From IMG/VR virus record IMGVR_UViG_3300028029_000006, positions 184,236 through 248,235 of that record: a stretch of DNA of 64,000 bases. One strand, given 5' to 3'. Both the position numbers and the translations under genes were made by a program. Below the pieces are notes generated by a model. That model saw only the letters and a program-made list of their open reading frames with translations. It searched no databases and had not been told where the DNA came from. Shown here one piece after another: positions 4,824 to 32,164 of this stretch; position 1 is the stretch's first letter, and every line of letters begins with the position of its first letter. The DNA comes from a virus.

Positions 4824-4837
4824 ATTTACATGTTTAG

Positions 4838-5308
4838 TTAGGCATAATTTTCAGTAATTTGTGCTACTTTTCTATCAAAAGCTATTTTGGTTAGCAATTC
4901 ATTATTAATGAAATAATATTTTTCCCCATTTGCTAACTCAACAGCTGCCCCATTAATTCTATGTAATTTATCATTTACATACCATTGTTTGTCCCCATTT
5001 ACATGTTCATAAGCTGGACCATTTTTTCTATTAAGCTTTCCATTCACAAACCAAGATTTAGATCCGTCAGGCCATTCAGCTGCAGGTTCATCATTATCTC
5101 TATGTTGTTTACCATTAATAAACCAGTGCTTATCTCCATTTGCCTATTTAATAGCTGGTTTATTATCTTCTCTATGAAGGTTGCCATTTATATACCAACG
5201 TTTAGAGCCATCTGCCCAAATACTAGCAGGTTTGTCATTTCCTCTATGAAGTTTACCTTTTAGAAACCAATTTTCTTTTTTGTTTTTAATTTTAACTGTA
5301 TATTTCAT
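4838..5308 (-). pseudogene. HRENDLPA-repeat gene with one in-frame TAG
   Basis: ATG at 5308 coupled to upstream stop; repeat frame continuous except for TAG at 5146-5144 (KPAIK*ANGDK). Confidence 0.75.
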
Positions 5309-6811: not shown

Positions 6812-7455
6812 TTAGACACCTCATAAAAGCCTCTAAGAGTTAAGCAAATGTTACCTTGAAATTCTCCTTGAAATGTAATTGGTAAAGCATGTTCTGAATA
6901 AGTGTTGCCTTGTTTTTTAACAACCACAAACATAACAGCTGGAGTTTGGACATAATCACTTGGCAACCAAACTAATTGTTTTCCAGATGTTTTTCTAAGA
7001 AATTGATAACCTTTTCTTCCAACCAAAATAGGCACATAATGATTTCTTAATTCATCTTGAGCACATTTACTATCAAGTTTATCGGATAAATCTTTTGTTA
7101 GTTTAATAGATAATTTATCTTGCTTATCAACCATAACAATTAACAGCATTTTACCTTCATCTCCAGCTTTTTTAATAGCTAGAAAGAAGTTACTCTCATT
7201 ATACCAGACAACTTCTTCAGGAGTTTTTGTTTTCTTATCATAACAAGGTTCACATGGGCTTTTAGGCAAACCAAACCACTTTGGGCATATACATTCTAAG
7301 GGACACTCTGGAAAAGCGTGGCCAGGCATATTTGTTAAAGGGATATCTGTTAAACCAATTAATTCTTTTTCAAAATTTGGTTGAAGTTGAGTTGGTGGAA
7401 GAATATAACATGATGTTGTTAAAAACAAAACAAGAAATAGAAATAATTTTTTCAT
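6808..7455 (-). CDS. thioredoxin-like lipoprotein without CXXC
   Basis: Lipobox TTSC; W..AIKKA..EGKMLLIV and TPAV paralogous to neighbour. Confidence 0.55.
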   Translation of the reverse strand: MKKLFLFLVLFLTTSCYILPPTQLQPNFEKELIGLTDIPLTNMPGHAFPECPLECICPKWFGLPKSPCEPCYDKKTKTPEEVVWYNESNFFLAIKKAGDEGKMLLIVMVDKQDKLSIKLTKDLSDKLDSKCAQDELRNHYVPILVGRKGYQFLRKTSGKQLVWLPSDYVQTPAVMFVVVKKQGNTYSEHALPITFQGEFQGNICLTLRGFYEVSK

Positions 7456-7459
7456 GATT

Positions 7460-8161
7460 TTACCTTACTAAGCCGGGGATTTGTTTTAAGTTACATATTG
7501 GTATATTAACTTGTTTATGTTTGGTTAACTTCTCTGATTGATTTAACTTGGCGATTATTTTCCTTTGTCTAGAAGTAAACCGTCCCCAATCACGAGTTTT
7601 TGTTGGATCAATATTGGAAGATAAAATCCCGGTAATATTTTCTTCTTTTAATGCCCACCGGATTTCTTCAAAAGTAAATTCATTTGGAGATTCTGTATTA
7701 AATATTTGCTCTTGATTATATATATTGTTTTCATTTAACATTTCGAACATTTGTTTAATTTCTAATAAATTTAAATTAGCCAATGGTAAAATATCTCCAG
7801 TAGACCATTTTTTATAAAGCCTAGCTTCATACCATTCTTGAGATAACCAACCAACTACAATTCCATTATCCATTGAAGCAAGATTATCTAACATAGCACC
7901 ACCAATTTCTAAATCTAATTCAATATTTGGTATTAAAATTTTTGCTTTGAATAAATCTGAAAATGAACTATCTAAATCATTATAATCTTCTGTAATAAAT
8001 CCAGTGTTAACACCTGATTTAAAGCACAAAATAGCAGTAGTTAATGAAGCTATATTATCTGTTTCTAATTTTACAACTAATGAATTTTTATTATGATCTT
8101 TGACGTAAGATCTTATCCATTCAACTGTTTTTTTAATTGTTTTATAAACATTAATAAGCAT
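7460..8161 (-). CDS. degenerate NAD synthetase (NadE)-like protein
   Basis: VEWIRSYV..N.NSLVV, GDILPLANL..EIKQ, TKHK pattern; SGGxDS PP-loop absent. Confidence 0.5.
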   Translation of the reverse strand: MLINVYKTIKKTVEWIRSYVKDHNKNSLVVKLETDNIASLTTAILCFKSGVNTGFITEDYNDLDSSFSDLFKAKILIPNIELDLEIGGAMLDNLASMDNGIVVGWLSQEWYEARLYKKWSTGDILPLANLNLLEIKQMFEMLNENNIYNQEQIFNTESPNEFTFEEIRWALKEENITGILSSNIDPTKTRDWGRFTSRQRKIIAKLNQSEKLTKHKQVNIPICNLKQIPGLVR

Positions 8162-8162
8162 T

Positions 8163-8345
8163 TCAGTAGCCTCCAGAATTAAACCATCCACTACCTTTTA
8201 GAACGAATCCATTTCCTTTTGATATTAATCTTTGTGCGGTTTCTTTTTCACATTCAGGACAAATGGTTATTGTATCATCACTTATTTTCTGCATCTCTTG
8301 CCAACAATGTTCACAATCTTTGCATTTGTATTCATATGTAATCAT
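8163..8345 (-). CDS. FmdB-family zinc ribbon protein
   Basis: YEYKCxxC..CPEC..RLIS..F.LKGSGW. Confidence 0.85.
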   Translation of the reverse strand: MITYEYKCKDCEHCWQEMQKISDDTITICPECEKETAQRLISKGNGFVLKGSGWFNSGGY

Positions 8346-8447
8346 ATTCTTCTCTATCTTTTAATATAACGTCAAAAAAAAAGATGACGAAATGCGTCAT
8401 CATAAGTTAATTGTCTAATGAACGTATAAGCGTTCTACTGGTAGCAT

Positions 8448-8924
8448 TTATAGTAGTGCTGCTGCTAAAGATCCAAGTAGCGTAAAAACACCACCGGCAA
8501 TAGTTATATATAATTTCCATTTACCATCAGATTCAGTAGGTTTCTTCTGAGTAACAAACTCTTTCTTGGAAACCAAAACGTCAACCTTCTGTTCTAAAAG
8601 CGCTACTTTTATATTTACTTGACTTCCGGCATCTGAATCTTTACTAACATACTCTTTAATATCTTTAACTGACTGTTCTAATAATGCTAATCTGGTTAAG
8701 ACTGAACCAGAATTGCCGCCTTCTCTAATGATTGCTGATAAACTCCTAACATTTTCAACTAGGTGTTTTAAATCTGCCTGTATGACAGCGGCACAAACTT
8801 TACTTTCTCTAATCTCATCAAGAAGTGCTTGGACTTGTTTAGCTGTTTGATTTAATTCTTGAATAAAATCTTCAATTAAATCTTTTTCAGCTGCTGATAC
8901 TTTCTTTTCCTCCGGCTGCATCAT
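8448..8924 (-). CDS. coiled-coil protein with C-terminal membrane anchor
   Basis: Heptad pattern and hydrophobic C-terminus. Confidence 0.6.
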   Translation of the reverse strand: MMQPEEKKVSAAEKDLIEDFIQELNQTAKQVQALLDEIRESKVCAAVIQADLKHLVENVRSLSAIIREGGNSGSVLTRLALLEQSVKDIKEYVSKDSDAGSQVNIKVALLEQKVDVLVSKKEFVTQKKPTESDGKWKLYITIAGGVFTLLGSLAAALL

Positions 8925-9141
8925 GCAATTCTCCAAGTATAGTGTTAATTTCTTTAAAAGCTTTATTACACTCTGTTTCCATCATTTTTCTTTTCCCATA
9001 ATCATCTGAAACTTCTTTATTTAATATCCTTAGCTGCTTTCTTAATTTAATTAACTTAGCCATTCTAATAGACATAACGTTATCACCTTTTGAGGTTGAA
9101 CTATCTTCTGTATAACTTAAAATTTTAGCTTCTTGATTCAT
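8887..9141 (-). CDS. hypothetical protein
   Basis: ORF in minus-strand operon. Confidence 0.55.
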   Translation of the reverse strand: MNQEAKILSYTEDSSTSKGDNVMSIRMAKLIKLRKQLRILNKEVSDDYGKRKMMETECNKAFKEINTILGELHDAAGGKESISS

Positions 9142-9186
9142 TATTTATGGTTATATGATGCAATACATTTAGATGACTAAAAATGC

Positions 9187-9699
9187 CTATTCTTCTTCCA
9201 TCAAAATTTTAATTAAACCATCTTTTTTGAATTTTGGATGAATTATTTTTGACAAAATTATAAACTCCTTATTAAATTTCAAAACATACTCTTCAAGAAC
9301 CATATCTGACCAATTTTCCATGACTTTACGTATCATTTTTTGAGGTCTTGATCCTAAGCCTCTGCCAAAAACTTTACTTTGTAAATTCTCAGCTATTTCT
9401 AACAACTGTTCAGGGTTTAAATGGCTCATCATATGGCTAATATTATTTTTCTTAATAGGATTAGATAAATACTTATCAGGTCCTTTAGCTAATAATATAG
9501 ATAAACTTAATGGTATCATATCAAAAGAAGCTACTATTACTATTGATTGAAGCAAATAGTCTGGATATATATCAGCAGAATGTTTTATTAACTCTATAGC
9601 TAATCTAACTTCTAGATCTGATATCTCACCATCATCAGATTTATTATACCTCCCGGTTTCTAAAAGCTGATTTAACCTATCTTGCCATTCTTTTTTCAT
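9187..9699 (-). CDS. short TROVE (Ro60)-like protein
   Basis: FGRGLGS..K..RK...W....L..Y.LKF.....L....HPK resembles the TROVE helical region; no vWA domain. Confidence 0.45.
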   Translation of the reverse strand: MKKEWQDRLNQLLETGRYNKSDDGEISDLEVRLAIELIKHSADIYPDYLLQSIVIVASFDMIPLSLSILLAKGPDKYLSNPIKKNNISHMMSHLNPEQLLEIAENLQSKVFGRGLGSRPQKMIRKVMENWSDMVLEEYVLKFNKEFIILSKIIHPKFKKDGLIKILMEEE

Positions 9700-10292
9700 T
9701 CTTCTGCCAAATGATGAGGGTATCGTTTAATAAAATCAACTTGATTAAGTCCTGACTCTTCAACACTCTTCTTCCAATAAAGATAAAGATTCCTTGCATC
9801 AGACTCAGCATTATGAATACCTTTAACAGTTTTAATATTAGCAAATTTTAAAAGTGTTCCCAATTGATTATTCTTAGGCTTAATTCCAGTTCTTAGCGCC
9901 CATTTTTTAGCCACATCCATAGTATTAAGCCAACAAATAGCAGGAAATGTTTTACCTACACTTGCCCACAAAGCATGACAAAAACGTTTATCAAAAGGAG
10001 CGTTATGAGCAACTATACAACGGTGTTCTATAGTTAACTCATCTTGATTGATGAATTTTTCGAATTTTTCAACAACTTCTTCTTTTGCGTCTCCTTTCAT
10101 TAAGTCAGCAATGGTCATACCAGTGATCTCTAAAGCTCTTCCATCAGCTCTATCAGGGTATTCACACTTAATCCTTTTTGTTAGTTGAACTCTGTCATCA
10201 TATCTAATGATTGAAAGCTCAGTCATTTCATGATACCCCGCTTTCAATCCACAAGTTTCAGAATCCAATACATAATACTTCAAACCAGACAT
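9696..10292 (-). CDS. DEDDh 3'-5' exonuclease (DnaQ-like)
   Basis: Motifs LDSETCG, AHNAPFD and HNAESDA. Confidence 0.88.
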   Translation of the reverse strand: MSGLKYYVLDSETCGLKAGYHEMTELSIIRYDDRVQLTKRIKCEYPDRADGRALEITGMTIADLMKGDAKEEVVEKFEKFINQDELTIEHRCIVAHNAPFDKRFCHALWASVGKTFPAICWLNTMDVAKKWALRTGIKPKNNQLGTLLKFANIKTVKGIHNAESDARNLYLYWKKSVEESGLNQVDFIKRYPHHLAEE

Positions 10293-10308
10293 AAATTTTT
10301 CCTTTCAG

Positions 10309-10641
10309 TTATTTTTTACAACCACAACCATCATCATCGCTTGGAAAACTACATGAGCCTCCAGCATTTTTTCCACCTAAACCGCCAACCCCACCTGCTC
10401 CACCTAAACCACCAACATTACTGTTGACTGCTGCTCCACCTTCACCTCCAACACCTCCCGTTCCCACAGAAACGGTTGTTGAATCACCTCCTTGGCTACT
10501 AGTCGTAGTTTGACTCATTCCACCATCTCCTCCTACTGTAGTTGAAGCTGACGGAATGTCTACCATTTCACTTCCTGGGCATCCAAAAGTTAAAAACCCA
10601 AAACATAGTACCATTACACTTAACACAATTGCATTTCTCAT
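10309..10641 (-). CDS. Gly/Thr/Ser-rich lipoprotein
   Basis: Signal peptide ending TFGC; GGxGG low-complexity linker; Cys-rich end. Confidence 0.65.
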   Translation of the reverse strand: MRNAIVLSVMVLCFGFLTFGCPGSEMVDIPSASTTVGGDGGMSQTTTSSQGGDSTTVSVGTGGVGGEGGAAVNSNVGGLGGAGGVGGLGGKNAGGSCSFPSDDDGCGCKK

Positions 10642-10734
10642 TTAATATCCTCTTGACTAGATTAATAATAGTTCAAAAACTCAACTGCTCTCGAAGCTAT
10701 TAAAAGGTATATATCATTTTAGACACATTTAATT

Positions 10735-11412
10735 ATGAATAAGTTTGCTCAAATTTTAGAGTCTGACATTGACTCTCTCATCTATCAATTATTAGGCAAA
10801 GCTGTGCCTTCAAGCTCAGAAAGTGTTGAGACTGATACTGAGGCAAATAAAATTGATGAAAGTTACCAGCTGCCAGTTAAACATACTAAGGGAGGCAAGG
10901 ATATCGATGAAGATAATAAACCTTGGGTTGTGGGGACTTACCTTCCGGGTCAATATATAAATGTAACCCATATTCAAGGGCATGAGGGGATCGATTTAAA
11001 ATCTGATAGAGGTTCACCTATTTATCCAATTGCTTCTGGCATAGTTACAGAGGCGCGAGACTATCCTAAAGGTGGTAAAACCGTTAAAGTCTCCCATGAA
11101 GACGGCAAAGTTGTCTCATACTATGCTCATATGGATGTTGTTCATGTGTCTCCTGGACAAGAGGTTACTCAATCATCTGTCATAGGTAATATGGGAGACA
11201 CTGGAAATGCCAAAGGAAGAGGTGCTCATCTTCATTATGAAGTGAAAATTGAAGGAAAAAAGATTGATCCACAAAGCATTACTGGCAAAAGAGTCGGATC
11301 ATTATCTAAACGAGCAGAATTTATTGCTAATATTATTAAGGGTTTAGATGATATGGTAGGAAGAAAAGGTAGCTTAAAAGATATCATCGATTACCTCAAA
11401 AAAAGCTCATGA
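10735..11412 (+). CDS. M23 family metallopeptidase
   Basis: Motifs HEGIDL, YAHM and GAHLHYEV. Confidence 0.9.
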   Translation: MNKFAQILESDIDSLIYQLLGKAVPSSSESVETDTEANKIDESYQLPVKHTKGGKDIDEDNKPWVVGTYLPGQYINVTHIQGHEGIDLKSDRGSPIYPIASGIVTEARDYPKGGKTVKVSHEDGKVVSYYAHMDVVHVSPGQEVTQSSVIGNMGDTGNAKGRGAHLHYEVKIEGKKIDPQSITGKRVGSLSKRAEFIANIIKGLDDMVGRKGSLKDIIDYLKKSS

Positions 11413-11422
11413 TATTATACAT

Positions 11423-12475
11423 ATGAGCAGAAAATATTCAAAAAAGTATTTTATTAATTTAGCTAAACAAAAAGGTTTCAGATTATCATCTGAATTCCTT
11501 GGTCTACAAAATCATTTATTAATTAAATGTATTAAGTGTTCTTTTATTAGAAAATTAGCCCGAGCAAGATTTCTTTTAGATTGTGATATTTACTGCAAGC
11601 CATGTTATAAAACAGCTGATTTCATTAAACATTCAAACATAACTCACAATAACAAATATGATTATTCTTTAGCTAAATATATTAATTATGATGTTAAAAT
11701 TAAAATCATATGTAGAGATCATGGTATTTTTAAACAAACTCCCTATAATCATAAATCTAGAAGTGGTTGTCCAAAATGCTCTCTTCAAAAAAAGACTTTA
11801 TCTGAAGATGAATTTATTAATCTTTGTAAAAAGATACATGGAAATAAATATGATTACAAATTAGTGAAGTATATTAGTAATAAAAGTAAAGTTCAAATAA
11901 TATGTGAAAAACATGGAGTTTTTGAGCAACGAGCTGATGCCCATAAAGGAGGACAAGGTTGTTCTAAATGTATGTCAGAAGGCCAAAGAACTACTAATAA
12001 AGATTTTATTGATAGATCTAACAAGGTTCATGATAGCAAATATAGTTATTCAAAATGCAAATATATTAAATTGAAGAAAAAAGTAAAAATAACATGTAAA
12101 ATTCATGGAGATTTCCTTCAACACCCATCAGATCATTTAAATGGCTCTGGATGTAAAAAATGTGTCGGACGAATATCTAAAAAAGAAACTGACTGGTTGG
12201 ATTCTTTTAATATTAAAATTAGAAATAAAATTATTTGGTTAAATTCAAAAAAATATATTTTTGCAGATGGTTTAGATGAAGAAACCAATACTATTTATGA
12301 ATTTTATGGTGATTATTGGCATGGGAATCCGAACGTTTATGATCAAGATAAAAATTGTTTTACCAATCAAACATTTGGGGATTTCTATAAAAGGACAATT
12401 AAACGCGAAAAATTAATTAAAAAAGCAGGATATAATCTTGTTACTATTTGGGAATCTGATTATGATTCTAAATAA
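11423..12475 (+). CDS. EDxHD/Vsr-like homing endonuclease with Zn-binding repeats
   Basis: Three H.NKYDYS..C..HG.F.Q..GC.KC repeats; DG..EFYGDYWHGNP..IWESD. Confidence 0.75.
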   Translation: MSRKYSKKYFINLAKQKGFRLSSEFLGLQNHLLIKCIKCSFIRKLARARFLLDCDIYCKPCYKTADFIKHSNITHNNKYDYSLAKYINYDVKIKIICRDHGIFKQTPYNHKSRSGCPKCSLQKKTLSEDEFINLCKKIHGNKYDYKLVKYISNKSKVQIICEKHGVFEQRADAHKGGQGCSKCMSEGQRTTNKDFIDRSNKVHDSKYSYSKCKYIKLKKKVKITCKIHGDFLQHPSDHLNGSGCKKCVGRISKKETDWLDSFNIKIRNKIIWLNSKKYIFADGLDEETNTIYEFYGDYWHGNPNVYDQDKNCFTNQTFGDFYKRTIKREKLIKKAGYNLVTIWESDYDSK

Positions 12476-12527
12476 ATTTAAAGAGATTATCGATTCTCTT
12501 AATAAAAGTTAGTGTTATTATATAAGT

Positions 12528-13475
12528 ATGACTAAGAAAAAGAATTATTCAAAAAAGTATTTTGTCACCTTGGCTAAACAAAAAGGTTTTAGCTTATCAT
12601 CTGATTTTACCGGGCTGCAAAATAATTTATTAATTAAATGTATTAAATGTTCTTCTTTAAGAAGTTTAATAACGGCAAAATTTTTGTTGGATTGCGATAT
12701 TCAATGCAAATCATGTCAAAAAACCAATGATTTTATTGAATCTGTGAATTTAGTTCATAAAAACAAATACGATTATTCATTAACTGTATTTGTTAATCGC
12801 AATACTAATATCAAAATAACTTGTAAAAAGCATGGCGTTTTTGAACAGCTTCCTTACAAGCACAAGTATGGTGATGGTTGTATTAAATGTGATAATGATG
12901 AGAAGAAGGTTAAATCAAAACCAGTTCGTAAGAAAGCGGTTAAAAAAACTACCAAAAAGAAAATTGTACCTAAAAAATCAGCACCAATAACAGCTAAAGG
13001 TGATTTTATTAATAAAGCAAATGTAGTTCATGATAATAAATATGATTATTCAAGATGTAATATTAAAAATAAGGAAGTTATTATAGTTTGCAAGAATCAT
13101 GGAAGTTTTTCTGAAACTAAAACCAATCACTTATCAGGAATTGGTTGTAAAAAATGCGTAGATATGGTGACTAAAAAAACAGCTGCTTGGTTAGATCAGT
13201 TGGGTATCAAAATTAGAAATCAAACAGTATGGATTAGACATGGCGAATCTGTTTTTGTTAACGGTCTTGATAAGAAGACTAAGACAATTTACGAGTTTTA
13301 TGGTGATTACTGGCATGGTAATCCAAATGTTTATAATCAAGATAAGGAGTGTTTCCCTAATAAAACATTTGGAGATTTTTATAAGAGAACAATTGAACGT
13401 GAGGAGCTGATTAAAAAGTGGGGATATAGCTTGGTTACTATTTGGGAGTCTGATTATGATTCCAAACAAGCTTAA
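12528..13475 (+). CDS. EDxHD/Vsr-like endonuclease, tandem paralog
   Basis: Same architecture with two repeats plus a Lys-rich insert. Confidence 0.72.
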   Translation: MTKKKNYSKKYFVTLAKQKGFSLSSDFTGLQNNLLIKCIKCSSLRSLITAKFLLDCDIQCKSCQKTNDFIESVNLVHKNKYDYSLTVFVNRNTNIKITCKKHGVFEQLPYKHKYGDGCIKCDNDEKKVKSKPVRKKAVKKTTKKKIVPKKSAPITAKGDFINKANVVHDNKYDYSRCNIKNKEVIIVCKNHGSFSETKTNHLSGIGCKKCVDMVTKKTAAWLDQLGIKIRNQTVWIRHGESVFVNGLDKKTKTIYEFYGDYWHGNPNVYNQDKECFPNKTFGDFYKRTIEREELIKKWGYSLVTIWESDYDSKQA

Positions 13476-13781
13476 GGAATTCTGATAAAGCGGTTTGAAT
13501 ATCATCTATACGTGTTTCAGACTGAGTTGATTCATTGTAAATGATCCAGTACTGTTTATTGTTGATTGGCCCAATTCCATTTAAATGAATGTTTTTATGG
13601 AAGTATGATTCTCCCATATGCATACCATCCAATGTTAATTTTATGGCTATTTGGATTGAGTTTTGTTTTTTATTTTTTAAACTAATCATAACATTTCTGA
13701 GCAATTATATTCTTTTGTCATTTTTCATAATGGATTTTTTATAAAATCTTTTGACATTTTTGTAGGGTAAGATATAGCAAT

Positions 13782-14546
13782 TCAGTTTATTTTATTTTGA
13801 AATTCTACAGTGAATTCTTTTGATAATATTTGAGTTTTGGATATTTTGTCCCAGTTTACTTTATCTTGGAATTCTCTTATGAAATCTTCTGATAACATTT
13901 GATACCCAGATATAGATGTCCAATCTAATCTGTCTTGAAATTCTCTTATAAATTCTTCAGATAAATCTCGTCTCCAAGATATACTAAACCAATCTATTTC
14001 ATCTTTAAATTCTTTCACAAAACTTTTAGATAAATACTCATTACTAGACATAACCTCCCAATTTATTTTACCTTTAAATTCTTTAACAAAATTCGAAGAT
14101 AACTTTTGATTCTCAGATATATAAAACCAATTTACTTTATCTTGAAAATCTCTTATAAAATCTTCTGATAATACTTGGTGATAAAGTATCCCCCTAAAAT
14201 TTAATTTATCTTCAAATTCTCTAATAAAATCTTCAGACAATTCTTGATGTGCAGATACTTGATGCCAATCTACTTTATCTTGAAATTCTCTTATAAATTC
14301 TTCTGATAACTTCTGACATTTAGATATAAAATACCAATCTACTTTATCGTGAAATTCTCTAATAAAACTCTCAGATAATATTTGACTTTCAGATATCCTC
14401 CTCCAATTTACATAGTTTTGGAATTCTCTAATAAAATTCTCTGATAATACTTGGTTATAAGATATCCTATTCCAATCTAAAATTGATAAAGCTATTTTAT
14501 ATAGAGTAAAATGAGATTTTATTTTTTTTAATATTGTTTTAATCAT
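13782..14546 (-). CDS. Trp-repeat protein (22-aa repeats)
   Basis: About 10 LSExFIREFxDKVxW repeats. Confidence 0.85.
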   Translation of the reverse strand: MIKTILKKIKSHFTLYKIALSILDWNRISYNQVLSENFIREFQNYVNWRRISESQILSESFIREFHDKVDWYFISKCQKLSEEFIREFQDKVDWHQVSAHQELSEDFIREFEDKLNFRGILYHQVLSEDFIRDFQDKVNWFYISENQKLSSNFVKEFKGKINWEVMSSNEYLSKSFVKEFKDEIDWFSISWRRDLSEEFIREFQDRLDWTSISGYQMLSEDFIREFQDKVNWDKISKTQILSKEFTVEFQNKIN

Positions 14547-14549
14547 AAT

Positions 14550-14945
14550 TTATTTCACATCAAAGTTGATTCCAGCCTCTTTAAGCTTTTCCTTAATTTC
14601 ATCAATATTCTCCAATTGAAACTCATTAATTTCATCTTCATAATCCAATGATATTCTTAGAAAATCTACATGTGCTTTACTTGTTAGATTCATTCCAGCT
14701 TTATTAAGAGCAATAACCATTTCTTTAAATTCAATTTTGCCTTCTTGATATTCCAACATTAATTCATCTCGAATTTTCAATCCATAAGCATTAAGCTCTT
14801 CAAAATTCTCCTTAAATTTCTTTCCAACTTCTTTAGGCCACATGCATGATTGATTATCCATAAATTGTTCGGTAGCAGTTTCGCTACATAAATCTAAATA
14901 ACTTTTTAATACATCTAATACAACATCTTTATCATGTTTTAACAT
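14550..14945 (-). CDS. hypothetical protein
   Basis: Operonic ORF. Confidence 0.6.
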   Translation of the reverse strand: MLKHDKDVVLDVLKSYLDLCSETATEQFMDNQSCMWPKEVGKKFKENFEELNAYGLKIRDELMLEYQEGKIEFKEMVIALNKAGMNLTSKAHVDFLRISLDYEDEINEFQLENIDEIKEKLKEAGINFDVK

Positions 14946-15286
14946 TAAACTTCCTTCCCTATAACTAAAGTATCATAATTTGCTGAAATGGCATATTCAA
15001 AAAGAGCTAACTTCAAAGTGTCTATTGATAATTCTTCATCCGCAAACACCCAATCATATCCGTCCCAAGTAGCTACAAACATTTCTTGGTCTTCCATTAT
15101 CCAAACAGCTTCTTTCTCTGTTTGAAATATAACCATTGGCGCCCCTTTTAATTTTAGTTCACGTTGCGCCTTGGGGATCACCCTCTCTAATAACTTAGAA
15201 ACATCTTCAATATTCATAATGATTTTCACCCCAACAAAAACATAACCATCTATATCTAACAAAGCTTTGCTGGTCAGGGTTTTCAA
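14945..15286 (-). CDS. hypothetical protein
   Basis: Operonic ORF; start uncertain. Confidence 0.55.
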   Translation of the reverse strand: MKTLTSKALLDIDGYVFVGVKIIMNIEDVSKLLERVIPKAQRELKLKGAPMVIFQTEKEAVWIMEDQEMFVATWDGYDWVFADEELSIDTLKLALFEYAISANYDTLVIGKEV

Positions 15287-15366
15287 TATACCATTTATGT
15301 AATTTATAGTCTTTATAATAAAATTTCACTATTTTAAAATCATACTTTCCAATATTTAATTTCATA

Positions 15367-15579
15367 TTAATATAAACCTGAGCCATCATTTTTAGAGTTT
15401 TCAATAGCCGCTTGTAAATCTTTTGCATTTACTAAAACTTCTACATCACCAATAGCAATAGTTATTAAACTTTTTCTTATATTACAACTGCCTACTAATA
15501 GTAAATACTTACTATCTTCTAATGTAAGACTGTTTGTATCATGTTTAATTGTTTTTACTACATTTTTTACTTTAATCAT
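15367..15579 (-). CDS. hypothetical protein
   Basis: ORF with RBS-like GGGGA. Confidence 0.55.
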   Translation of the reverse strand: MIKVKNVVKTIKHDTNSLTLEDSKYLLLVGSCNIRKSLITIAIGDVEVLVNAKDLQAAIENSKNDGSGLY

Positions 15580-15784
15580 TTTATCCCCATCTTTCTAACC
15601 ATTTTAATTCACCGCAGCGAGTTTTCTTATAATGCCCCCAGCATAAAAATAACCATCTATATCTGGCAGCGTAATATCTTTCGCTAGAATGTTCTACATG
15701 CCATTTTACAGGTCTTAAAAACATCATGCAGTGTTTAAAAGACATATGAAATTCATATATCCCAATTTTTAATTTCTTTTCATA

Positions 15785-16111
15785 TTAGTTTGCCATTGGT
15801 GATAGTGTTTTAGCTTCAGGTACATCATCAACCACTCGAAGGCCACGTACTAATAATACAATTTCTTCTGGAGTTAACATTCTATAATCACCAATGTATT
15901 CAATATTTTCAAGTAGTTGGTTAAAACCGATTAAACCTTCCCATATCCATAATCCATAAATGTTATCTTCATTGGGAGGGGTTAATAATAAATCAGATGT
16001 ATTATGACAACCTCCTTCTTCAATATCTTCAGCAACTTCTCCATTGCGAGAGTAATCTAAAATCATTCCATCATTCCATGTGGAGAAAAATATCATTATT
16101 TGTTCTTTCAT
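15785..16111 (-). CDS. hypothetical protein
   Basis: AAGGA upstream of ATG. Confidence 0.65.
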   Translation of the reverse strand: MKEQIMIFFSTWNDGMILDYSRNGEVAEDIEEGGCHNTSDLLLTPPNEDNIYGLWIWEGLIGFNQLLENIEYIGDYRMLTPEEIVLLVRGLRVVDDVPEAKTLSPMAN

Positions 16112-16140
16112 TTTATTCCTTTAACAATTGGTTTAATTTT

Positions 16141-16980
16141 TCATACATCTACTAACTCCGATAATATCTCTATCTTTGAACTTCTAATCTTCTTGTTATT
16201 ATGTACAATTGCTCCAATACTCTCAATCGGAATTTTTACCTTGAATATTTTTCCTTTTGAATAATAATTCTTTGCTTTTTCAATTGCCCAAGAAGATAAA
16301 CCAAATGAATTCTCATGATCAATATTCATATCACAATGGCAAGTATAAGTATTTCCTACCTCATACTTATATTGAAAATTAAAAACACTATGACCATCTT
16401 CTTTTACTGATTTATATGCTATAATTGTTGTTTCATTATCTACAATTTCATAATTAGTGTTCTCTTTAATATATTTTAATTTATCTTCAACTGATTTGTA
16501 TAACCAATTTGTTTCAGGATCAGGTTTATCTAAATTAAATTCTTTTCTGAATTCTTCAGATAATTTTTGATAAGAAGATATTCGCCTCCAGTTTACTTTA
16601 TTTTTAAACTCTCTAATGAAATCTTCAGATAACTTTTGACGGATTGATATATAATCCCAATCTACTCTATCTTTAAATTCTCTAATAAAATCTTCTGATA
16701 ACTTTTGCCAACCAGATATTGTAGACCATTCTACTTTATCTTGAAATTCTTTAATGAATTCTTCAGATAACTTTTGACACCAAGATATATCATACCATTC
16801 TACTTTATCTTGAAATTCTCTAATAAATTCTTCTGATAAAGTTTGAAATTGAGATATATAATACCAATCTACTTTATTTTTAAAATCCTCTCTTGATTTC
16901 TTATATAATTTATCTTGTTTAGTGAACCTCATTTCTGAACAATTATATTCAGAAGCTATTTTTTTAATTAATTTTTTCAT
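16141..16980 (-). CDS. Trp-repeat protein with C-terminal AYK..FGLS..KIR domain
   Basis: About 5 repeats; C-domain near-identical to 25679..26866. Confidence 0.85.
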   Translation of the reverse strand: MKKLIKKIASEYNCSEMRFTKQDKLYKKSREDFKNKVDWYYISQFQTLSEEFIREFQDKVEWYDISWCQKLSEEFIKEFQDKVEWSTISGWQKLSEDFIREFKDRVDWDYISIRQKLSEDFIREFKNKVNWRRISSYQKLSEEFRKEFNLDKPDPETNWLYKSVEDKLKYIKENTNYEIVDNETTIIAYKSVKEDGHSVFNFQYKYEVGNTYTCHCDMNIDHENSFGLSSWAIEKAKNYYSKGKIFKVKIPIESIGAIVHNNKKIRSSKIEILSELVDV

Positions 16981-17003
16981 ATAATATTACCAAATAATTG
17001 TAG

Positions 17004-17813
17004 ATGAGTAATTTCAGAAAAATAACCTTACAAAAATTAGCAGGTAATTTAACCAATTTTGTTAAAAAAGAATTAGGAAAACTTAAATCTTCCTTCAAAG
17101 AAGCTTTTCTTAAGCTACCACCAGGTCTCGAAAGAGAAAAGCTTATTTATGAACAAGTAATCAAAAGTAATTTAAAAGCTAACTTGATCCCAGTTACTAT
17201 TGATGGACCAGCTGGAATTAAAATTACTTATAGTGTGATGCCTGATTATATTACCATTGATGGAATTAGAATTCCTATGGCAGGTAAAACTGCTCAAAAA
17301 GTTGCTGACCATTTTAAAATGAAACTTCCAACCGATAAAATGTCAGATCAAATCTGGGAAGCAGCAGATGTTAAGCTTCGTCCAGCTCCTCTTTCTTCTG
17401 GTGGTAGAATTGGTGGTAAATATTATTCTGGGAAAGAAGTTGTGAAATCTAAAATTGGAGATTCCGATTCAGCAGTCGCTTATAGTGAAATGATTGAAGA
17501 ACAACTTAAAGAGAAAGGAAAAAAAGGATTAATTGCTGGGCATATGAAGTCTGTTATCATGCCTCTTAGACCAGGTAAACTTGGTTTATATGGATGGAGA
17601 GGGGAAAAAGGGGATACGATTCAAAAATCACCAATAACATCTCATGACACGTCTATACATACTGAGTACGGAGCAGGAACAAGGTTGGTAGATCGAAAAA
17701 TCACAGTTACTCTTCCAAATGGTAAAATTATTAAAACAACTATGGATGAAGTAATGAATCACCCAAAACTTTATAAGTATATTTCACAAGTTAAAGGGAT
17801 TAATAAATATTAA
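17004..17813 (+). CDS. conserved hypothetical protein (VMPDY/IAGH/YGW family), possible cell-wall enzyme
   Basis: Paralog of 3996..4823; function is inference. Confidence 0.65.
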   Translation: MSNFRKITLQKLAGNLTNFVKKELGKLKSSFKEAFLKLPPGLEREKLIYEQVIKSNLKANLIPVTIDGPAGIKITYSVMPDYITIDGIRIPMAGKTAQKVADHFKMKLPTDKMSDQIWEAADVKLRPAPLSSGGRIGGKYYSGKEVVKSKIGDSDSAVAYSEMIEEQLKEKGKKGLIAGHMKSVIMPLRPGKLGLYGWRGEKGDTIQKSPITSHDTSIHTEYGAGTRLVDRKITVTLPNGKIIKTTMDEVMNHPKLYKYISQVKGINKY

Positions 17814-17816
17814 TAA

Positions 17817-18413
17817 TTAGCCTATCATAGTAAATTTATTATATTTTAAATTAAAACTCCATCTTACTTTTTTGAATTCTTCGATAAATTCATCTGATAA
17901 TTCATTGTGACCAAGTTTGTCCCAATATAATTCGTTTTTAAATGTTCTAATGAAATCTTCTGATAGTTTTTGATAAATAGATATCCAATACCAATTTACT
18001 TTATCTTGAAAATCAAAAATAAAATTTTCTGATAATTTTTGATAAACAGATATTGCTTCCCAATTAATTCTATTAATCTTATCTTTAAACTCTCTAAGAA
18101 AATCTTCAGATAAATCTTGACCTTCAAATATATAAACCCAATCAACTTTATCTTGAAAATCTTTAATGAAATCACCAGACATTTTTTGATTTTTAGAAAT
18201 GCAACTCCAATCTACTTCATTTTGAAATGATCTGATAAAATCTTCTGATAAATCTTGGCAATTAGATATGTTAAACCAATTTACTTTATTACTGAATTCT
18301 TTTATAAATTCTTCAGGTAATATAAAATTCATAGATATATCATGCCAATGTACTTTATCTTCAAATTCTTTTCTTGACATTTCATGTAGCTTATAATTTG
18401 AATTAAATGTCAT
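17817..18413 (-). CDS. Trp-repeat protein; family N-cap extends upstream to 18479
   Basis: About 7 repeats; upstream in-frame KELIKLIARTYDCSE matches the family N-cap. Confidence 0.8.
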   Translation of the reverse strand: MTFNSNYKLHEMSRKEFEDKVHWHDISMNFILPEEFIKEFSNKVNWFNISNCQDLSEDFIRSFQNEVDWSCISKNQKMSGDFIKDFQDKVDWVYIFEGQDLSEDFLREFKDKINRINWEAISVYQKLSENFIFDFQDKVNWYWISIYQKLSEDFIRTFKNELYWDKLGHNELSDEFIEEFKKVRWSFNLKYNKFTMIG

Positions 18414-18479
18414 TTCTGAGCAATCATATGTTCTAGCTATTAATTTAATTAATTCTTTCGTATCACCTTTTATTTTTTT

Positions 18480-18755
18480 TCATAATTCTTTCTCTTCTAT
18501 AAGAGTTGCGCCCGCCCCTCTATCTCCAAATTCGAAACCTAGTATATAAAATCCCCAGCGACGTGGAAGCAACCTGCCTGGGATCCACTTGATAACACCA
18601 GGTCGGTTGCGAAAAAATCCAGCTCGTGAGCCCGACCCGCGAAAAAGAGCTACCCACCAATCCCAAGGTAAAATATGTATTGGCCACTTAATAGATCCAT
18701 CTTCCTCTCTACATACAATACCAATCTTAACAAGTAATTTAATTAATTTTTTCAT
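18480..18755 (-). CDS. hypothetical protein
   Basis: Operonic ORF. Confidence 0.6.
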   Translation of the reverse strand: MKKLIKLLVKIGIVCREEDGSIKWPIHILPWDWWVALFRGSGSRAGFFRNRPGVIKWIPGRLLPRRWGFYILGFEFGDRGAGATLIEEKEL

Positions 18756-19340
18756 TTAACCTTCAATTCTTCTTCTAATTTTATCTAGCTTCTTTTCATC
18801 GCCATTTTCCAAATTAAACTGAATGGCATTAAACATATACTTTTTTCCCATTGATATATTTTTGCTTAAATCATCTAAATAAGCACAACCAAAATAATCT
18901 GGATGTTCCAATAAAAAGCTTTTAAAATATAATTTTGAAGGTTTTCTTGCTCCAACTTCACAACTTAAATGTAAATCACAACCTTCCAATAATTCAGGAA
19001 TATTCTCTTTTATATATCTTAAATGAACAAACCCTATATTGCTAAGCAAAGCTACATTATAACCTTCGCTTTTTAACTTGGCCAAATATTTCATCATAAT
19101 TTCATTTGGAATTAACATTTCATTCCAAGCGTCTATTAATTCTTTGCATTCAAAAATTCCAAATTTTACCTTTAATTCATATGAAATTGTTGTTAAACCA
19201 AGATCTTGACGAGTTTGTAAATCACATAAAAAAGCCATTGAATCTTCTATTTGATTTAGATGAAGCTCATTATATTTTTTAAAAAATGGTTCAAAATTAA
19301 GCTCCAATAAAACTCTTCCAATATCAAATGCTACATACAT
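18756..19340 (-). CDS. HAD-superfamily hydrolase
   Basis: FDIGRVL, LLSN, SCEVGARKP and YLDD motifs. Confidence 0.82.
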   Translation of the reverse strand: MYVAFDIGRVLLELNFEPFFKKYNELHLNQIEDSMAFLCDLQTRQDLGLTTISYELKVKFGIFECKELIDAWNEMLIPNEIMMKYLAKLKSEGYNVALLSNIGFVHLRYIKENIPELLEGCDLHLSCEVGARKPSKLYFKSFLLEHPDYFGCAYLDDLSKNISMGKKYMFNAIQFNLENGDEKKLDKIRRRIEG

Positions 19341-28357: not shown

Positions 28358-28517
28358 ATCCGTAATCCTTTATCATCGCCACAAAATCATAATAATATAA
28401 ATCCATCTCACAGCCTCCTGAAGGCTTTATTACTACTCCTCCCACCTCCGCCCATCTACCACTGCAATAACTTCGTAAAGACCCCGACACAGCCCTGGAA
28501 TCATATCACCATCATAC

Positions 28518-28901
28518 TTATACCTCTGACCAACAAATATAAATGGAGAAAAGCCCTCCAACTTCTCTCAAACCACCTCCCCTAGATAAATATCCAGAAC
28601 TATATCCCTGATCCTCAACAATAATATCATCTTCCAAATCATAATGACCCATGAAATAATCCAAATCAAGCGTACGATCAGATCCAATATGGATTAAATT
28701 AGATTTAAGGTTTATTCCCGTCACTTCGCTAGATAAAAATATACAATCATCTATTGATGAATAAACTTGCTTCCATTTATCTCCAACCTTAGGAAATCTT
28801 ATCTCATTCCACTGCTCCAACGCTTCCACTGCCAAAAAACGATCTCCAATGTCAAATATATTCATAGACCAAACTACCTCAGCATTGCAACCTTCATCCA
28901 A
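28518..28901 (-). CDS. hypothetical protein
   Basis: ORF; start uncertain. Confidence 0.45.
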   Translation of the reverse strand: MDEGCNAEVVWSMNIFDIGDRFLAVEALEQWNEIRFPKVGDKWKQVYSSIDDCIFLSSEVTGINLKSNLIHIGSDRTLDLDYFMGHYDLEDDIIVEDQGYSSGYLSRGGGLREVGGLFSIYICWSEV

Positions 28902-29827
28902 ATCAATCTCAATTCCCTTTACCCGTAAATCACCACCATTTCTGTACTTCCCTCAATCATTTCATATACTTATAACCAAATCTCACTAAATTCCACACCG
29001 ACTTTTTTTAAAATCCTACCCGATCTCTTAACCCAAAAAATAAAAACGAAATATCCTCAACCAACTCGATATTCTCACCAACCAAATACTCAATCCATAT
29101 CGAATTTGTTACATTATAATAACTAATTACTAAACCATAATATAAAATTATATACCAAACACTACCCAAAAAACTCAATGATATCATATATTTACAAACT
29201 TTCTGGCCAAAAATGACCGATGTAATTCAAATTTTCAAAAATATTAATTTTCTCGTTGTGGAATCTAACACCGATCCACTTTTGTGTCAAGATCTCCCAT
29301 AAAGTACCACAAAATCCCATGAATTCCCATGAAAAAATCATAAATCTAAAAGGTAAGAAAGATGACAACAACAATTATAATCACAACATAAATATAAGTC
29401 AATTTATATCTAATCTAAAATGTAGATGTAAAAAGTAAGATGAAGAATGATTAATATATAAAGAAGAGCTAAATTATAAAGATAAAAATGTATAAGATAA
29501 AAGGTGTATGATTAAAAGAAGTAAATGAATAAGAATATAAAAGGTATATGATTAAAATGTAAAAGGTAAGAGTAATGTATATATAATTATCTACTTATAT
29601 AGAATACGCAATGTACAATAAATATATAATCAAACCTTATACATATACACATACTTATCTTGTTCCTTTTGTTTCTACTCTTTTTCCCTTCTTTTTTAGC
29701 CATAACTCGTTTTTACTGGGCGCCCTGGGCAACACGTGCCCCATGGTAAACATTCTAACCAGGTCAAACCCCACACCATGGATCATTTTTTACCAGGTTT
29801 AATTTACTACCATGGATCTTTTTTTAT

Positions 29828-29864
29828 TCACTGAACATTACTCACTGAACATTACTCACTGAAC
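29828..29864. repeat. 14-bp tandem repeat (TCACTGAACATTAC, about 2.6 copies)
   Basis: Read directly from the sequence. Confidence 0.85.
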
Positions 29865-29880
29865 TAATTGCTTTTACTTT

Positions 29881-29896
29881 TGGCAAGGTTTTTGCT
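29881..29896 (+). promoter_or_regulatory. sigma54-type promoter candidate 1
   Basis: TGGCAAGGTTTTTGCT = GG-N10-GC, close to TGGCAC-N5-TTGCW. Confidence 0.5.
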
Positions 29897-29935
29897 ACGC
29901 ACATCGCGCACATTGATATATGAGAGAGAAGCGGC

Positions 29936-30218
29936 CAAGCCATTGATATCATTAGACAATTCCCCAAGTGCGGCAATCACTCCACATACCGCGACCGATC
30001 TGTCACACTCCAAGTGCTTGATATCATTGGCATGGTGCGACATGTTTGCCGCATGTGACAATCGTTCCACACTATGCGACAATCCTACCGCACCCGTAAA
30101 CCATTGATATCATTGGGATGGTGCGACAACAATGCCGCACCATGGGTAGGGCCCAACTGGCGAGGCGAGGCTAGGCGGTTGGCCCCCATGGTACGGCTCC
30201 AATGATATCAAGCACTTA
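29936..30218. promoter_or_regulatory. array of four IHF consensus sites and six 18-bp dyads (putative enhancer)
   Basis: WATCAANNNNTTR at 29936-48, 30011-23 and 30097-109 (minus) and 30206-18 (plus); dyads start at 29969, 29990, 30036, 30054, 30075 and 30122. Confidence 0.7.
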
Positions 30219-30225
30219 GGCTAGT

Positions 30226-30241
30226 TGGCATGGTGCCTGCA
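30226..30241 (+). promoter_or_regulatory. sigma54-type promoter candidate 2
   Basis: TGGCATGGTGCCTGCA, GG-N10-GC, with an IHF site just upstream. Confidence 0.62.
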
Positions 30242-30279
30242 TTGTCTGTATTCACCGGACACAACGGCCCAACGCCACT

Positions 30280-30295
30280 TGGCACGGTCGGTGCA
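30280..30295 (+). promoter_or_regulatory. sigma54-type promoter candidate 3
   Basis: TGGCACGGTCGGTGCA, GG-N10-GC. Confidence 0.62.
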
Positions 30296-30312
30296 TTGTC
30301 CCAAGTCGAGGT

Positions 30313-30353
30313 CAGTAGGTAGCTGGCAAGTTCGATTCTTGCCCTACTTCCCA
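30313..30353 (+). ncRNA. tRNA minihelix-like element (acceptor + T-arm + CCA)
   Basis: AGTAGG/CCTACT stem, GCAAG-TTCGATT-CTTGC T-arm, ends C-CCA. Confidence 0.55.
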
Positions 30354-31030
30354 AGGGACAATGGTGTTCCACATTGTAACCACAACTCCCACAAGGTAGG
30401 GTCATGCGTTTTATCCAGCTGTACTAGGTGCGGCACCCACTAGGGTTTCAGTTATTCCAAAACAAGTCAAGATCTCACTATTCAACGTGGGATGGTTTCG
30501 CAAGCCATGATGCCGCAAGGTCAAGTTGCCAGAGTTAACACTGTCAATCTCGTAATGGGTTGTCACACTAATACTCTCAAACGTTTTTCTTCCGCTAGTG
30601 CGTAGCCAAAGTGGCCAAACTAGGTTGATGTAATTATCAGCGAAGTTGGAAGCGACTAAGTTTTATACGCTTAGCGTTTGAAGTTTTAGAAAGGTGTTCC
30701 GAACCATACCAACGGCTTGGGTGACTCGCTAGTTCTTTGACAATTGAATCATGCAGTGAGTAGGTTAACCGCCTAAGTTCTAATCTTCCTAAGGGAAGCA
30801 CCAAGAATCAAACGGTTAACATTGGGACCGGTATCGGTAAGTCCCCTACAATATTGTTAGTCACTTCTGTATGATCGATGCGTAGGTTAGTTACCTACAT
30901 TGACTCACACGCTCCACAGTTGGGCCAATAAACGGTTATGATAACCTGGTAGGGTTGTTGTGATTATGGTACGAGTGCAACTCTCGTTTGCGTGTGCTGA
31001 CTCATTCACAATTAAGTGTTCGAGTTTAAA
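30354..31030 (+). ncRNA. long structured leader / putative large ncRNA
   Basis: No credible ORF; nested stems and GCAA loops. Confidence 0.5.
30732..30743 (+). promoter_or_regulatory. rrn-type boxA antitermination element
   Basis: GTTCTTTGACAA matches the boxA consensus; lies between structured domains. Confidence 0.55.
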
Positions 31031-31056
31031 CAACAATTCTAAAGAAAGATAATATC

Positions 31057-31329
31057 ATGGCCCGTACAGCAACAACGATTGACAGTGTCCGTAACTTATT
31101 CAACGAAGTCGCACCTAACTTCGAACAGTTTGATGGTGCAACTCTACTTCCGATGAGTAATAATAAGTGTGCTATTCTCAAAGATGGCAAACTTGAAGAG
31201 TACTCATGTTCTTCATTGAAGGCAAGTTTGGAGTTTATCAAGAATCATCTAATGGTTCCGAAAGTTGAATCTGATTATGATTCATCTGATGTTGCTCCAA
31301 TCTCAAGCCCACTTTCTGCTGTTGGTTGA
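31057..31329 (+). CDS. hypothetical protein, first gene of the plus-strand arm
   Basis: AGAAAG upstream of ATG. Confidence 0.7.
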   Translation: MARTATTIDSVRNLFNEVAPNFEQFDGATLLPMSNNKCAILKDGKLEEYSCSSLKASLEFIKNHLMVPKVESDYDSSDVAPISSPLSAVG

Positions 31330-31338
31330 ATTCTAAAA

Positions 31339-31391
31339 AGGTGAGGTGACATAGGCTCACAATGTAGGTTCGACTCCTACCTCACTTTCCA
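31339..31391 (+). ncRNA. anticodon-less tRNA-like RNA
   Basis: 7-bp acceptor AGGTGAG/CTCACTT, one GG-loop hairpin, T-arm GTAGG-TTCGACT-CCTAC, T-CCA. Confidence 0.65.
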
Positions 31392-31422
31392 ATATATCTA
31401 ACCCTAACAGAAGGCACGATTC

Positions 31423-31644
31423 ATGCCAAAAGAGAACGAGAACGACTACGACACGATCAAGCGCGAAGCGCAATTCAAGGCTGACAAGCATGGCTTGTAC
31501 TACCGCATTGAGAAAAGCATGTTTGGGGAATGGGTGTGCCACGCCGTACCATGGCCAAAGAACCAGCACGGTCGAGATCTTGTTGGGGAGCTAGTTAGTC
31601 CTAGCACGTATGTGGAATCCCACTATGCACGGCCATGGTTGTAA
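31423..31644 (+). CDS. hypothetical protein
   Basis: ORF with RBS-like GAAGG. Confidence 0.55.
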   Translation: MPKENENDYDTIKREAQFKADKHGLYYRIEKSMFGEWVCHAVPWPKNQHGRDLVGELVSPSTYVESHYARPWL

Positions 31645-31930
31645 GTGTTCCACATGTGTCGAATCTTTTGACAATGGTAAACGGTTGTATACAGCTGGTT
31701 GCAATTGCAATCATTGTTGGTGGCCAACGCTGGGGAAGGAATCATTGGACATTACCCAACCCGAGTCGTGTCTTTTTGATAAGGGGAAAGTTCAATGAAA
31801 GAATTGAATATCGAATGGTATATAAACTCTTTACTTAATTCCAACGATGTGGATGACATGTTTGATTCGAATGATTCGGATGACATGTTTGATCAATCAA
31901 TTGATTGCGAACGAGATTGCGAGGTTGTTT

Positions 31931-32164
31931 ATGATTATCGAAACCTATAACCGAGAAGATCTTGAAACGAAGCGTGAGCTATTGCCCTGGCAAAAGTTGG
32001 GGCTTTCGTATACAAGTACGGGTTATGGTAAAAAGATACCAACTCCGACCATGGTACGTTTGCCAGGATCACCCCGTTGGCGAAGAGTATATTGTTGCAT
32101 CTTTAGCAACATGGGCACTTGTTATGTTCAAGCCCCAAAGGGTAATTGGATTGTCATTTATTAA
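31931..32164 (+). CDS. conserved phage hypothetical protein
   Basis: GYGKKIPT..WRRVY..SN.GT motif; GAGG RBS. Confidence 0.65.
   Translation: MIIETYNREDLETKRELLPWQKLGLSYTSTGYGKKIPTPTMVRLPGSPRWRRVYCCIFSNMGTCYVQAPKGNWIVIY

Follow-up and report, generated by a model that had tools for sequence, protein, structure and literature searches.

What switches on a gene arm whose head is a gene-free tract of short ordered repeats? The question is raised by an island of 1.7 kb between two oppositely oriented gene arms of a huge phage, IMG/VR record IMGVR_UViG_3300028029_000006 (409,147 bp, 32% G+C, and 96% complete according to that record). The window, that is, the whole stretch of DNA analysed here, comprises 64,000 nucleotides (bases 184,236–248,235 of the genome) and supplies the numbering used below unless genome positions are named. 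The island contains three boxes of the −24/−12 type recognized by sigma-54 RNA polymerase (P0, P1 and P2), six 18-bp dyads and four matches to the consensus of integration host factor (IHF). Sigma-54 promoters stay silent until an ATP-driven activator opens them and rank as the tightest of bacterial transcription switches, and phages are thought to begin infection via strong sigma-70 promoters or polymerases of their own. Comparison with other phages gives good support to sigma-54-type promoters in this region, and the boxes are very likely real promoters of that type. The reading of the region as a whole, a control region heading the rightward arm in which the boxes are combined with an enhancer made of dyads and IHF sites, has in our judgement about an even chance of being right.

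The GG-N10-GC elements listed in a preliminary description of this DNA are all present and all lie on the plus strand (Table 1). Positions were scored with an approximate matrix, our own rendering of the published sigma-54 consensus. By this measure P0, P1 and P2 rank first, third and fifth of 818,000 positions in the whole genome; the remaining matches among the top ten all fall inside open reading frames (ORFs), leaving P0–P2 as the only noncoding ones. When the 1-kb island was shuffled 5000 times, 70 shuffles contained one match that strong and none contained two. All three boxes match the sigma-54 consensus from −26 to −22, at −20 (G) and from −14 (T) to −11, with GG and GC placed 10 nt apart within TGGCAC-N5-TTGCW. 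The longer motif TTGGCA-N-GGT-N3-TGCW is common to P0, P1, P2 and the glmY promoter of E. coli, a proven sigma-54 promoter. P2 is a diverged 27-nt copy of P1 located 54 bp downstream, and three of the six differences between them fall in the spacer separating the two elements. The boxes are noncoding and face downstream, preceding a leader and the first plus-strand genes. A sigma-70 reading, with TTGGCA taken as the −35 element, was considered and rejected: no −10 hexamer follows 16–18 nt on, and P0–P2 are therefore not disguised sigma-70 promoters.

The same box recurs in related huge phages. We label the source phage G000 and the other phage records compared G002–G013, and scanned the latter with TGGCAY-N6-TGCW, using the pattern read backwards as control. 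The box class occurs 8–39 times per genome in at least eight huge phages, against 0–1 matches for the reversed control. Boxes versus control matches number 16 versus 1 in G004 (452 kb, complete; 15 of the 16 in an arm at 412.7–445.4 kb), 25 versus 0 in G006 (354 kb; cluster at 77.4–81.4 kb), 15 versus 0 in G007 (481 kb; cluster at 419.8–424.4 kb), 8 versus 0 in G009 (448 kb; four at 433–437 kb), 39 versus 1 in G010 (335 kb, complete; 258.8–276.6 kb), 13 versus 0 in G011 (210 kb; 144.9–149.2 kb), 20 versus 0 in G012 (179 kb; 30.0–33.3 kb) and 20 versus 0 in G013 (116 kb; first 19 kb, all on the plus strand). G002 and G003 were set aside, as their four matches each lie in coding DNA and are probably due to chance. 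Six of the eight have terminases with 41–62% identity to that of the source phage, a range that applies to G004, G006, G007, G009 and G010 (51–62% for G006, G007 and G009; 41–46% for G010). The best cultured-phage matches of the large terminase are just 26–28% identical, and its 26 relatives in IMG/VR mostly reach 44–54% identity, with a single 4.8-kb fragment at 74%.

Several properties of these boxes go beyond their number. Positions left free by the scan pattern also follow the sigma-54 consensus, with G at −20 and T at −16/−15. In G013 all 20 boxes face genes, mostly 3–12 nt past the previous ORF and 48–71 nt ahead of the next start codon, and most boxes in G004 and G010 come after a hairpin and a T-run. 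A scan of IMG/VR for the box plus a second TGCA returned 104 stretches at the correct spacing, many of them in 330–480 kb contigs, against 51 scattered singletons for the same pattern off by one base. The box arm of G004 begins at a strand switch, to the left of which lie homologues of the window's left-arm genes. P0 read on for another seven bases (GGCA-N6-TTGCTACGCAC) occurs once in the source genome and once in G006, there at the head of the box array. In G006, two sigma-54-type boxes point away from each other across a 6-nt gap, both of them followed by TTGCTACG and one facing each arm; the source phage has the rightward counterpart of this pair (P0) alone, and its left arm has a sigma-70-type promoter. 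Because of the counts, positions, consensus and synteny in the relatives, we regard the boxes as a conserved promoter-like class in this phage group. Together with the consensus fit and the spacer differences between P1 and P2, the gene-oriented repeats at the operon starts of relatives bear out the −24/−12 reading first proposed for the three elements.

Which factor reads the boxes is a separate matter. In G004, G006, G007 and G010 they also occur as face-to-face pairs with a 19-nt offset (TGGCAY-N5-TTGCW-N3-WGCAA-N5-RTGCCA); the spacers of these pairs do not pair, so the elements are not simple hairpins. Four of them stand in tandem in G006 (77,400–77,750), the last three about 88 bp apart. 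Such pairs, the tens of copies without enhancers and the lack of an activator gene in all ten phages searched would suit a reader other than sigma-54, be it a phage protein, an unrecognised polymerase factor or a symmetric DNA-binding protein acting on the 35-bp palindromes of the relatives. This explanation is nevertheless improbable, given that all twelve informative positions of the sigma-54 consensus are matched while the spacer varies, that the boxes of G013 and of the source phage are single and gene-facing, that a 5-nt gap misfits the geometry of the sigma-70 family, and that P0–P2 have no −10 element at the right distance from TTGGCA.

Upstream of P1 lies the dyad array. All six 18-bp dyads of the preliminary description start where it had placed them, five as exact copies of TGYGRC-N6-NYCRCA and the one at 29990 with one mismatch. 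When up to one mismatch is allowed, the window contains 16 matches against 3.4 expected, and none of 100 shuffles reaches 16; the exact motif is absent from the rest of the 409-kb genome and thus confined to the array. Dyad 6 extends into a 26-bp palindrome, ATGGTGCGAC...GCCGCACCAT. The period of 85–86 bp and the 21-bp spacing of dyads 1 and 2 and of dyads 4 and 5 were likewise confirmed. Unit A (29969–30053) and unit B (30054–30139) are 66% identical, with the dyad arms and the palindrome block kept, and the conserved block of both units reads TTGATATCATTGG-ATGGTGCGACA. By these alignments, the two units arose through an old tandem duplication that preserved the arms. NtrC, CRP, FNR, LuxO and GlrR were each considered as identities for the dyads or palindromes and rejected, the order or spacing of half-sites being wrong (by eye, against their consensus sequences). 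A coding reading of the array was also discarded, as the ORFs of 72–79 amino acids that cross it have TTG starts and look spurious.

The four IHF sites match WATCAANNNNTTR exactly at the positions that had been claimed, the first three on the minus strand and the fourth on the plus strand. The consensus is not enriched in the window as a whole (15 occurrences versus 12.3 expected, not above chance); the four sites lie inside 283 bp, where about 0.05 would be expected. All four derive from one repeated block, YAAR-N4-TTGATATCATTRG. Variation within this block is confined to the N4 of the IHF consensus, which speaks for a real IHF-type site.

Table 1. Features of the control island and its borders, in window coordinates
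Feature	Position	Strand	Remarks
ORF-poor control island	29375–31056		1.7 kb between the arms, without credible genes
Sigma-70-type leftward promoter, TTGACT-17-TATAAT	29374–29402	−	head of left arm; agrees with consensus at 11 of 12 positions
Three tandem 14-bp repeats, TTAYTCACTGAACA	29824–29865	+	repeat family
P0 box, TGGCAAGGTTTTTGCT	29881–29896	+	predicted +1 near 29908; best matrix score genome-wide
IHF-consensus site 1, TATCAATGGCTTG	29936–29948	−	overlaps palindrome TGATATCA
Dyad 1, TGCGGC-N6-TCCACA	29969–29986		exact TGYGRC-N6-NYCRCA
Dyad 2, CGCGAC-N6-GTCACA	29990–30007		single mismatch to pattern
IHF-consensus site 2, TATCAAGCACTTG	30011–30023	−	exact consensus match
Dyad 3, TGCGAC-N6-GCCGCA	30036–30053		exact pattern
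Dyad 4, TGTGAC-N6-TCCACA	30054–30071		exact pattern
Dyad 5, TGCGAC-N6-ACCGCA	30075–30092		exact pattern
IHF-consensus site 3, TATCAATGGTTTA	30097–30109	−	exact consensus match
Dyad 6, TGCGAC-N6-GCCGCA	30122–30139		exact pattern; −131 to −114 from predicted P1 start
G+C-rich spacer	30140–30198		dyad 6 to IHF site 4
IHF-consensus site 4, TATCAAGCACTTA	30206–30218	+	perfect 19-bp inverted copy of site 2; abuts P1
P1 box, TGGCATGGTGCCTGCA	30226–30241	+	predicted +1 near 30253
P2 box, TGGCACGGTCGGTGCA	30280–30295	+	predicted +1 near 30307
tRNA-like minihelix	30311–30355	+	acceptor stem, T arm GCAAG-TTCGATT-CTTGC, C-CCA; start of predicted P2 transcript

The preliminary description had interpreted these elements as upstream activator sites, IHF sites and −24/−12 promoters in the usual order. 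The promoter part of that layout stands; the enhancer part is plausible in that its order and distances resemble those of glmY, and it is qualified by the absence of the array from relatives. Classical sigma-54 promoters such as nifH, glnHp2 and Pu combine upstream activator sites, an IHF bend and a −24/−12 promoter. The dyads here provide inverted-repeat sites at about the usual 80–250 bp upstream, spanning −114 to −284 from the predicted P1 start, and IHF site 4 lies between dyads and promoter, unusually near −24. Unlike nifH, glnHp2 and Pu, the phage region has an IHF site that touches −24 and three more IHF-like sites within the array.

Judged by layout, the closest known system is E. coli glmY, in which the order is ABS1-ABS2-IHF-ABS3-IHF-sigma-54 promoter-small RNA (PMC3045617). 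In the K-12 sequence ABS2 occupies −197 to −180 and ABS3 −133 to −116; relative to the predicted P1 start, dyad 4 at −199 to −182 would correspond to ABS2 and dyad 6, at the distance given in Table 1, to ABS3. The glmY core TTGGCAC-N5-CTGCAT nearly equals P1. As in glmY and glmZ, which depend on GlrR/QseF, IHF and sigma-54, the order is dyad-dyad-IHF-dyad-IHF-promoter, the dyads are 18 bp long and the predicted product is noncoding. The two systems differ in that the phage unit is duplicated to give six dyads and four IHF sites, that there are three promoters with one upstream of the array, and that the phage has neither an overlapping sigma-70 −10 element nor an activator gene. GlrR/QseF sites of the form TGTC-N10-GACA were found in no register. 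The phage region is not a member of the glmY family, because its dyads read TGYG-N10-CRCA instead.

A number of observations weigh against the enhancer. The array is not conserved alongside the promoters, being absent from G004 and G006, and the boxes of the relatives, without a visible enhancer and often face to face, are unlike classical activator-dependent promoters. IHF site 4 is centred at about −40 of P1, nearer than usual, and P0, lying upstream of the array, would transcribe through it. When 185,579 species genomes of bacteria and archaea were searched for pairs of dyads with starts 21 bp apart, 115 scattered matches turned up in G+C-rich genomes, with no host signal. The phage itself carries two divergent genes of the HU/IHF family, 1.1 kb apart (genome positions 330,785–331,099 and 332,189–332,638), one of which has weak best matches to the IHF alpha and beta models, far below the cut-offs. 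The IHF block also reads as an extended −10 element, TGATATCAT, pointing rightward at sites 1–3 and leftward at site 4. Finally, as RNA the minus strand of the dyads pairs at 34 of 36 arm positions, eight of them G-U, compared with 26 of 36 for the plus strand.

The strand bias in pairing could mean that the dyads act as RNA, each folding into a hairpin of a leftward minus-strand transcript. Such a transcript would begin at about 30195, driven by IHF block 4 as an extended −10 element, and the hairpins would give the left arm a structured leader or an array for protein binding. By hand count, all eight transition mismatches go one way and three positions alternate among G-C, G-U and A-U across the copies, and the minus-strand fold is the more stable (−126.9 versus −109.1 kcal/mol for the plus strand). 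Both strands, however, beat their shuffles about equally (z −4.35 and −4.04), and the pairing bias is not significant because the copies are duplicated and represent perhaps four independent events. The left arm has a strong promoter of its own at 29402, and there are no relatives from which covariation could be read. Hairpins of this kind are a highly improbable explanation of the array.

The extended −10 reading also bears on the possibility that the boxes are of sigma-54 type while the dyads and palindromes are operators of a phage regulator, either a repressor or a shut-off protein like SPO1 TF1, so that the array would time or silence the promoters. If the TGATATCAT blocks were extended −10 elements, dyads 3 and 6 would span +1 to +18, where operators classically lie. 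Relatives that carry boxes without the array are in keeping with an operator, as are the two divergent phage HU/IHF-family proteins and the TGACA-N3-TGTCA arrays found −20 to −90 from some G013 boxes (3.8-fold enriched), whose half-site resembles the GYGACA of the dyads. That apparent resemblance, however, is short, no DNA-binding domain was found in ten small neighbouring proteins, and the distances from the dyads to P1 fit an enhancer well. We consider operators unlikely and keep to the host-activator enhancer as a plausible account of the dyads and IHF sites, drawn by analogy with glmY.

The setting of the array admits a further interpretation. Minus-strand genes end at about 29,374 and plus-strand genes begin at 31,057, with the strand switch between them. 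The island is A+T-rich up to about 29,700 and has 48–50% G+C thereafter, in a genome of 32% G+C. No Rfam family matched positions 28500–32000, no DNA-level relatives of the region were found in GenBank phages, IMG/VR or JGI metagenomes, and no close relatives were found for the two flanking proteins. Next to P0 stand the three tandem 14-bp repeats, which we take from their sequence to resemble the DnaA box TTATNCACA at 7–8 of 9 positions; their TCACTGAACA is found at no other site in the genome. Five of the 30 CCATGG sites of the genome fall within 700 bp here (29700–30400), some of them inside a 28-nt imperfect inverted repeat (29741–29768 and 29788–29815).

In phage lambda, the origin has 18–19-bp dyads about 21 bp apart beside A+T-rich DNA, and cosB has an IHF site between terminase sites. 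The array could by this comparison be a cis-acting DNA site: an iteron origin, a packaging site or an injection stop like that of T5, for which the 1.66-kb, repeat-rich, untranslated iss region is a precedent (10.1101/866236). The array occurs once in the genome, within 1.7 kb devoid of genes where the strands switch and the GC skew has a local minimum, and it adjoins an A+T-rich tract and the three DnaA-box-like 14-mers. The skew, however, tracks gene direction genome-wide without a pattern of bidirectional replication, and a better origin candidate exists at genome positions 271,445–272,403 (87,210–88,168 in window numbering, beyond the window end), where 959 bp with 24% G+C form the longest tract of the genome without genes. 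The distance from the array to the terminase gene is 200 kb, and relatives that conserve the layout of the arms lack the array. A cis-acting site is thus very unlikely to be the explanation. No replication initiator was recognised among the ten small neighbouring proteins. Two more specific sites were considered and dropped, a phage attP (there is no tyrosine integrase in the genome) and a P1-type parS (there is no ParB N-terminal domain in the genome).

T4-type phages have repeated cassettes of promoter and stem-loop. Such cassettes and T5 iss resemble the present region as repeated regulatory elements or large, repeat-rich untranslated tracts placed early in the genomes of large phages; they differ in using sigma-70 promoters or DnaA boxes, the element described here having the sigma-54 consensus.

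How far the boxes reach is a further matter. The preliminary description coupled an early arm of more than 33 kb to a host enhancer-binding protein and so to host state, which is an overreach. The right arm has 19 terminator-like sites versus 10.6 expected, on both strands and with several on the plus strand, as well as other promoter-like sites such as TTGACA-17-TACATT at 34607. What the boxes can be said to control from these data is a 750-nt leader together with the first few small genes; control of 33 kb is not supported. The left arm has at its head the sigma-70-type promoter of Table 1, which is the top match in a 19-kb scan and lies directly upstream of the first minus-strand ORFs. The tRNA-like minihelix after P2 has a second counterpart at 31334–31390, following the first gene and likewise composed of acceptor stem, T arm, discriminator base and CCA; both are without a D arm or anticodon arm. 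In G006 a comparable element with T arm and CCA lies about 100 nt past the box array. A tRNA gene after P2 was considered and rejected, as ARAGORN called none with its default settings, and the models obtained at low thresholds were forced and poor.

The factors that would act at the boxes were looked for in the phages themselves. Sigma-54 domains were not found by domain search in G000 and G002–G005, and the sigma-54 interaction ATPase domain (PF00158) gave nothing above noise in G000, G002–G007, G009, G010 and G013. That no activator gene is recognisable in the window therefore stands and extends to the whole genome. Two weak PF00158 matches were examined as a phage-encoded activator and rejected: one is a MoxR-like ATPase without the GAFTGA loop, the other an FtsK-like protein. 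The phage has no cognate AAA+ activator combining PF00158 with a GAFTGA loop. No multisubunit RNA polymerase was found in G000. Two genes of the sigma-70 family are present, at genome positions 296,947–297,150 and 161,554–161,688 (region 2 matches of 61.8 and 31.8 bits). As a pointer to the host, sigma-54 promoters in Flavobacterium psychrophilum head chaperone and envelope-stress genes (PMC9723704), a lead by analogy towards a host route of Bacteroidota type.

On the enhancer reading, we infer sigma-54 dependence, a binder of the dyads, DNA bending and the start sites from the arrangement of the elements. The phage would depend on the core RNA polymerase of its host, and host sigma-54 holoenzyme would bind P0, P1 and P2 as a closed complex. 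A dimeric DNA-binding activator, either a host enhancer-binding ATPase or a phage protein, would occupy the dyads, and IHF or a phage HU/IHF-like protein would bend the DNA such that the dyad-bound protein contacts the polymerase. Transcripts would then start at the positions predicted in Table 1 and carry the minihelix and the 750-nt leader into the first small genes.

The genomes compared have some further features. At least the final 100 bases of the source contig copy bases 31–130, pointing to a closed or terminally redundant assembly, although in IMG/VR the record is entered as linear. Shine-Dalgarno use in G000 is weak (30% versus 11% background), and conserved leaders without a Shine-Dalgarno motif precede genes in G013, G010 and G004, that of G013 reading ACAATTAAAATTAGAATT-ATG. 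Over bases 1–19,000 of G013, TGACA and TGTCA alternate to give a 13-bp palindrome every 8 bp, in arrays located at −20 to −90 relative to part of the boxes. G004 has a 40-kb arm of 46–63% G+C (411,800–450,000) in a phage otherwise of 31–35%, and ten long ORFs of this arm have no Pfam family. CCCATCC occurs 72 times in 60 kb of G004 (390–450 kb), with 69 copies on the plus strand and almost every copy in the high-G+C arm; in the modules examined it lies about 15–30 nt ahead of start codons and may be an unusual signal for translation or processing.

Precedents among phages are few. Pectobacterium phage Q19 is reported to encode a putative sigma-54-like protein (PMC7693777), and for Pseudomonas phage YuA, which has no sigma-54 gene, one sigma-54-like promoter is reported (Ceyssens et al. 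2008, as cited in PMC10914365). The YuA promoter is the only phage precedent found in the literature searched; it is reported as a single promoter with no enhancer array, as opposed to three boxes and an array here and a class of 8–39 copies in relatives. No literature on arrays of sigma-54 boxes in huge phages was found. What is new is the recurrence of the box class across related huge phages. More broadly, and as a rather unlikely possibility, a clade of 330–480-kb phages with genes for neither sigma-54 nor an AAA+ activator may run a whole class of small, probably early, genes from sigma-54-type promoters opened by an undescribed route. Candidate routes would be a phage substitute for the enhancer-binding ATPase, an activator without a DNA site of its own, or a stress-responsive activator of the host; the private dyad/IHF array of the source phage would then be a docking platform for the opening factor. 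If huge phages place such boxes without an activator, either infection is gated by host signalling or sigma-54 promoters can fire by a route yet to be discovered. The source region is the sole case in the clade with a textbook-like enhancer beside its boxes, which makes it a good substrate for work in vitro, and how these phages open such promoters becomes a testable question.

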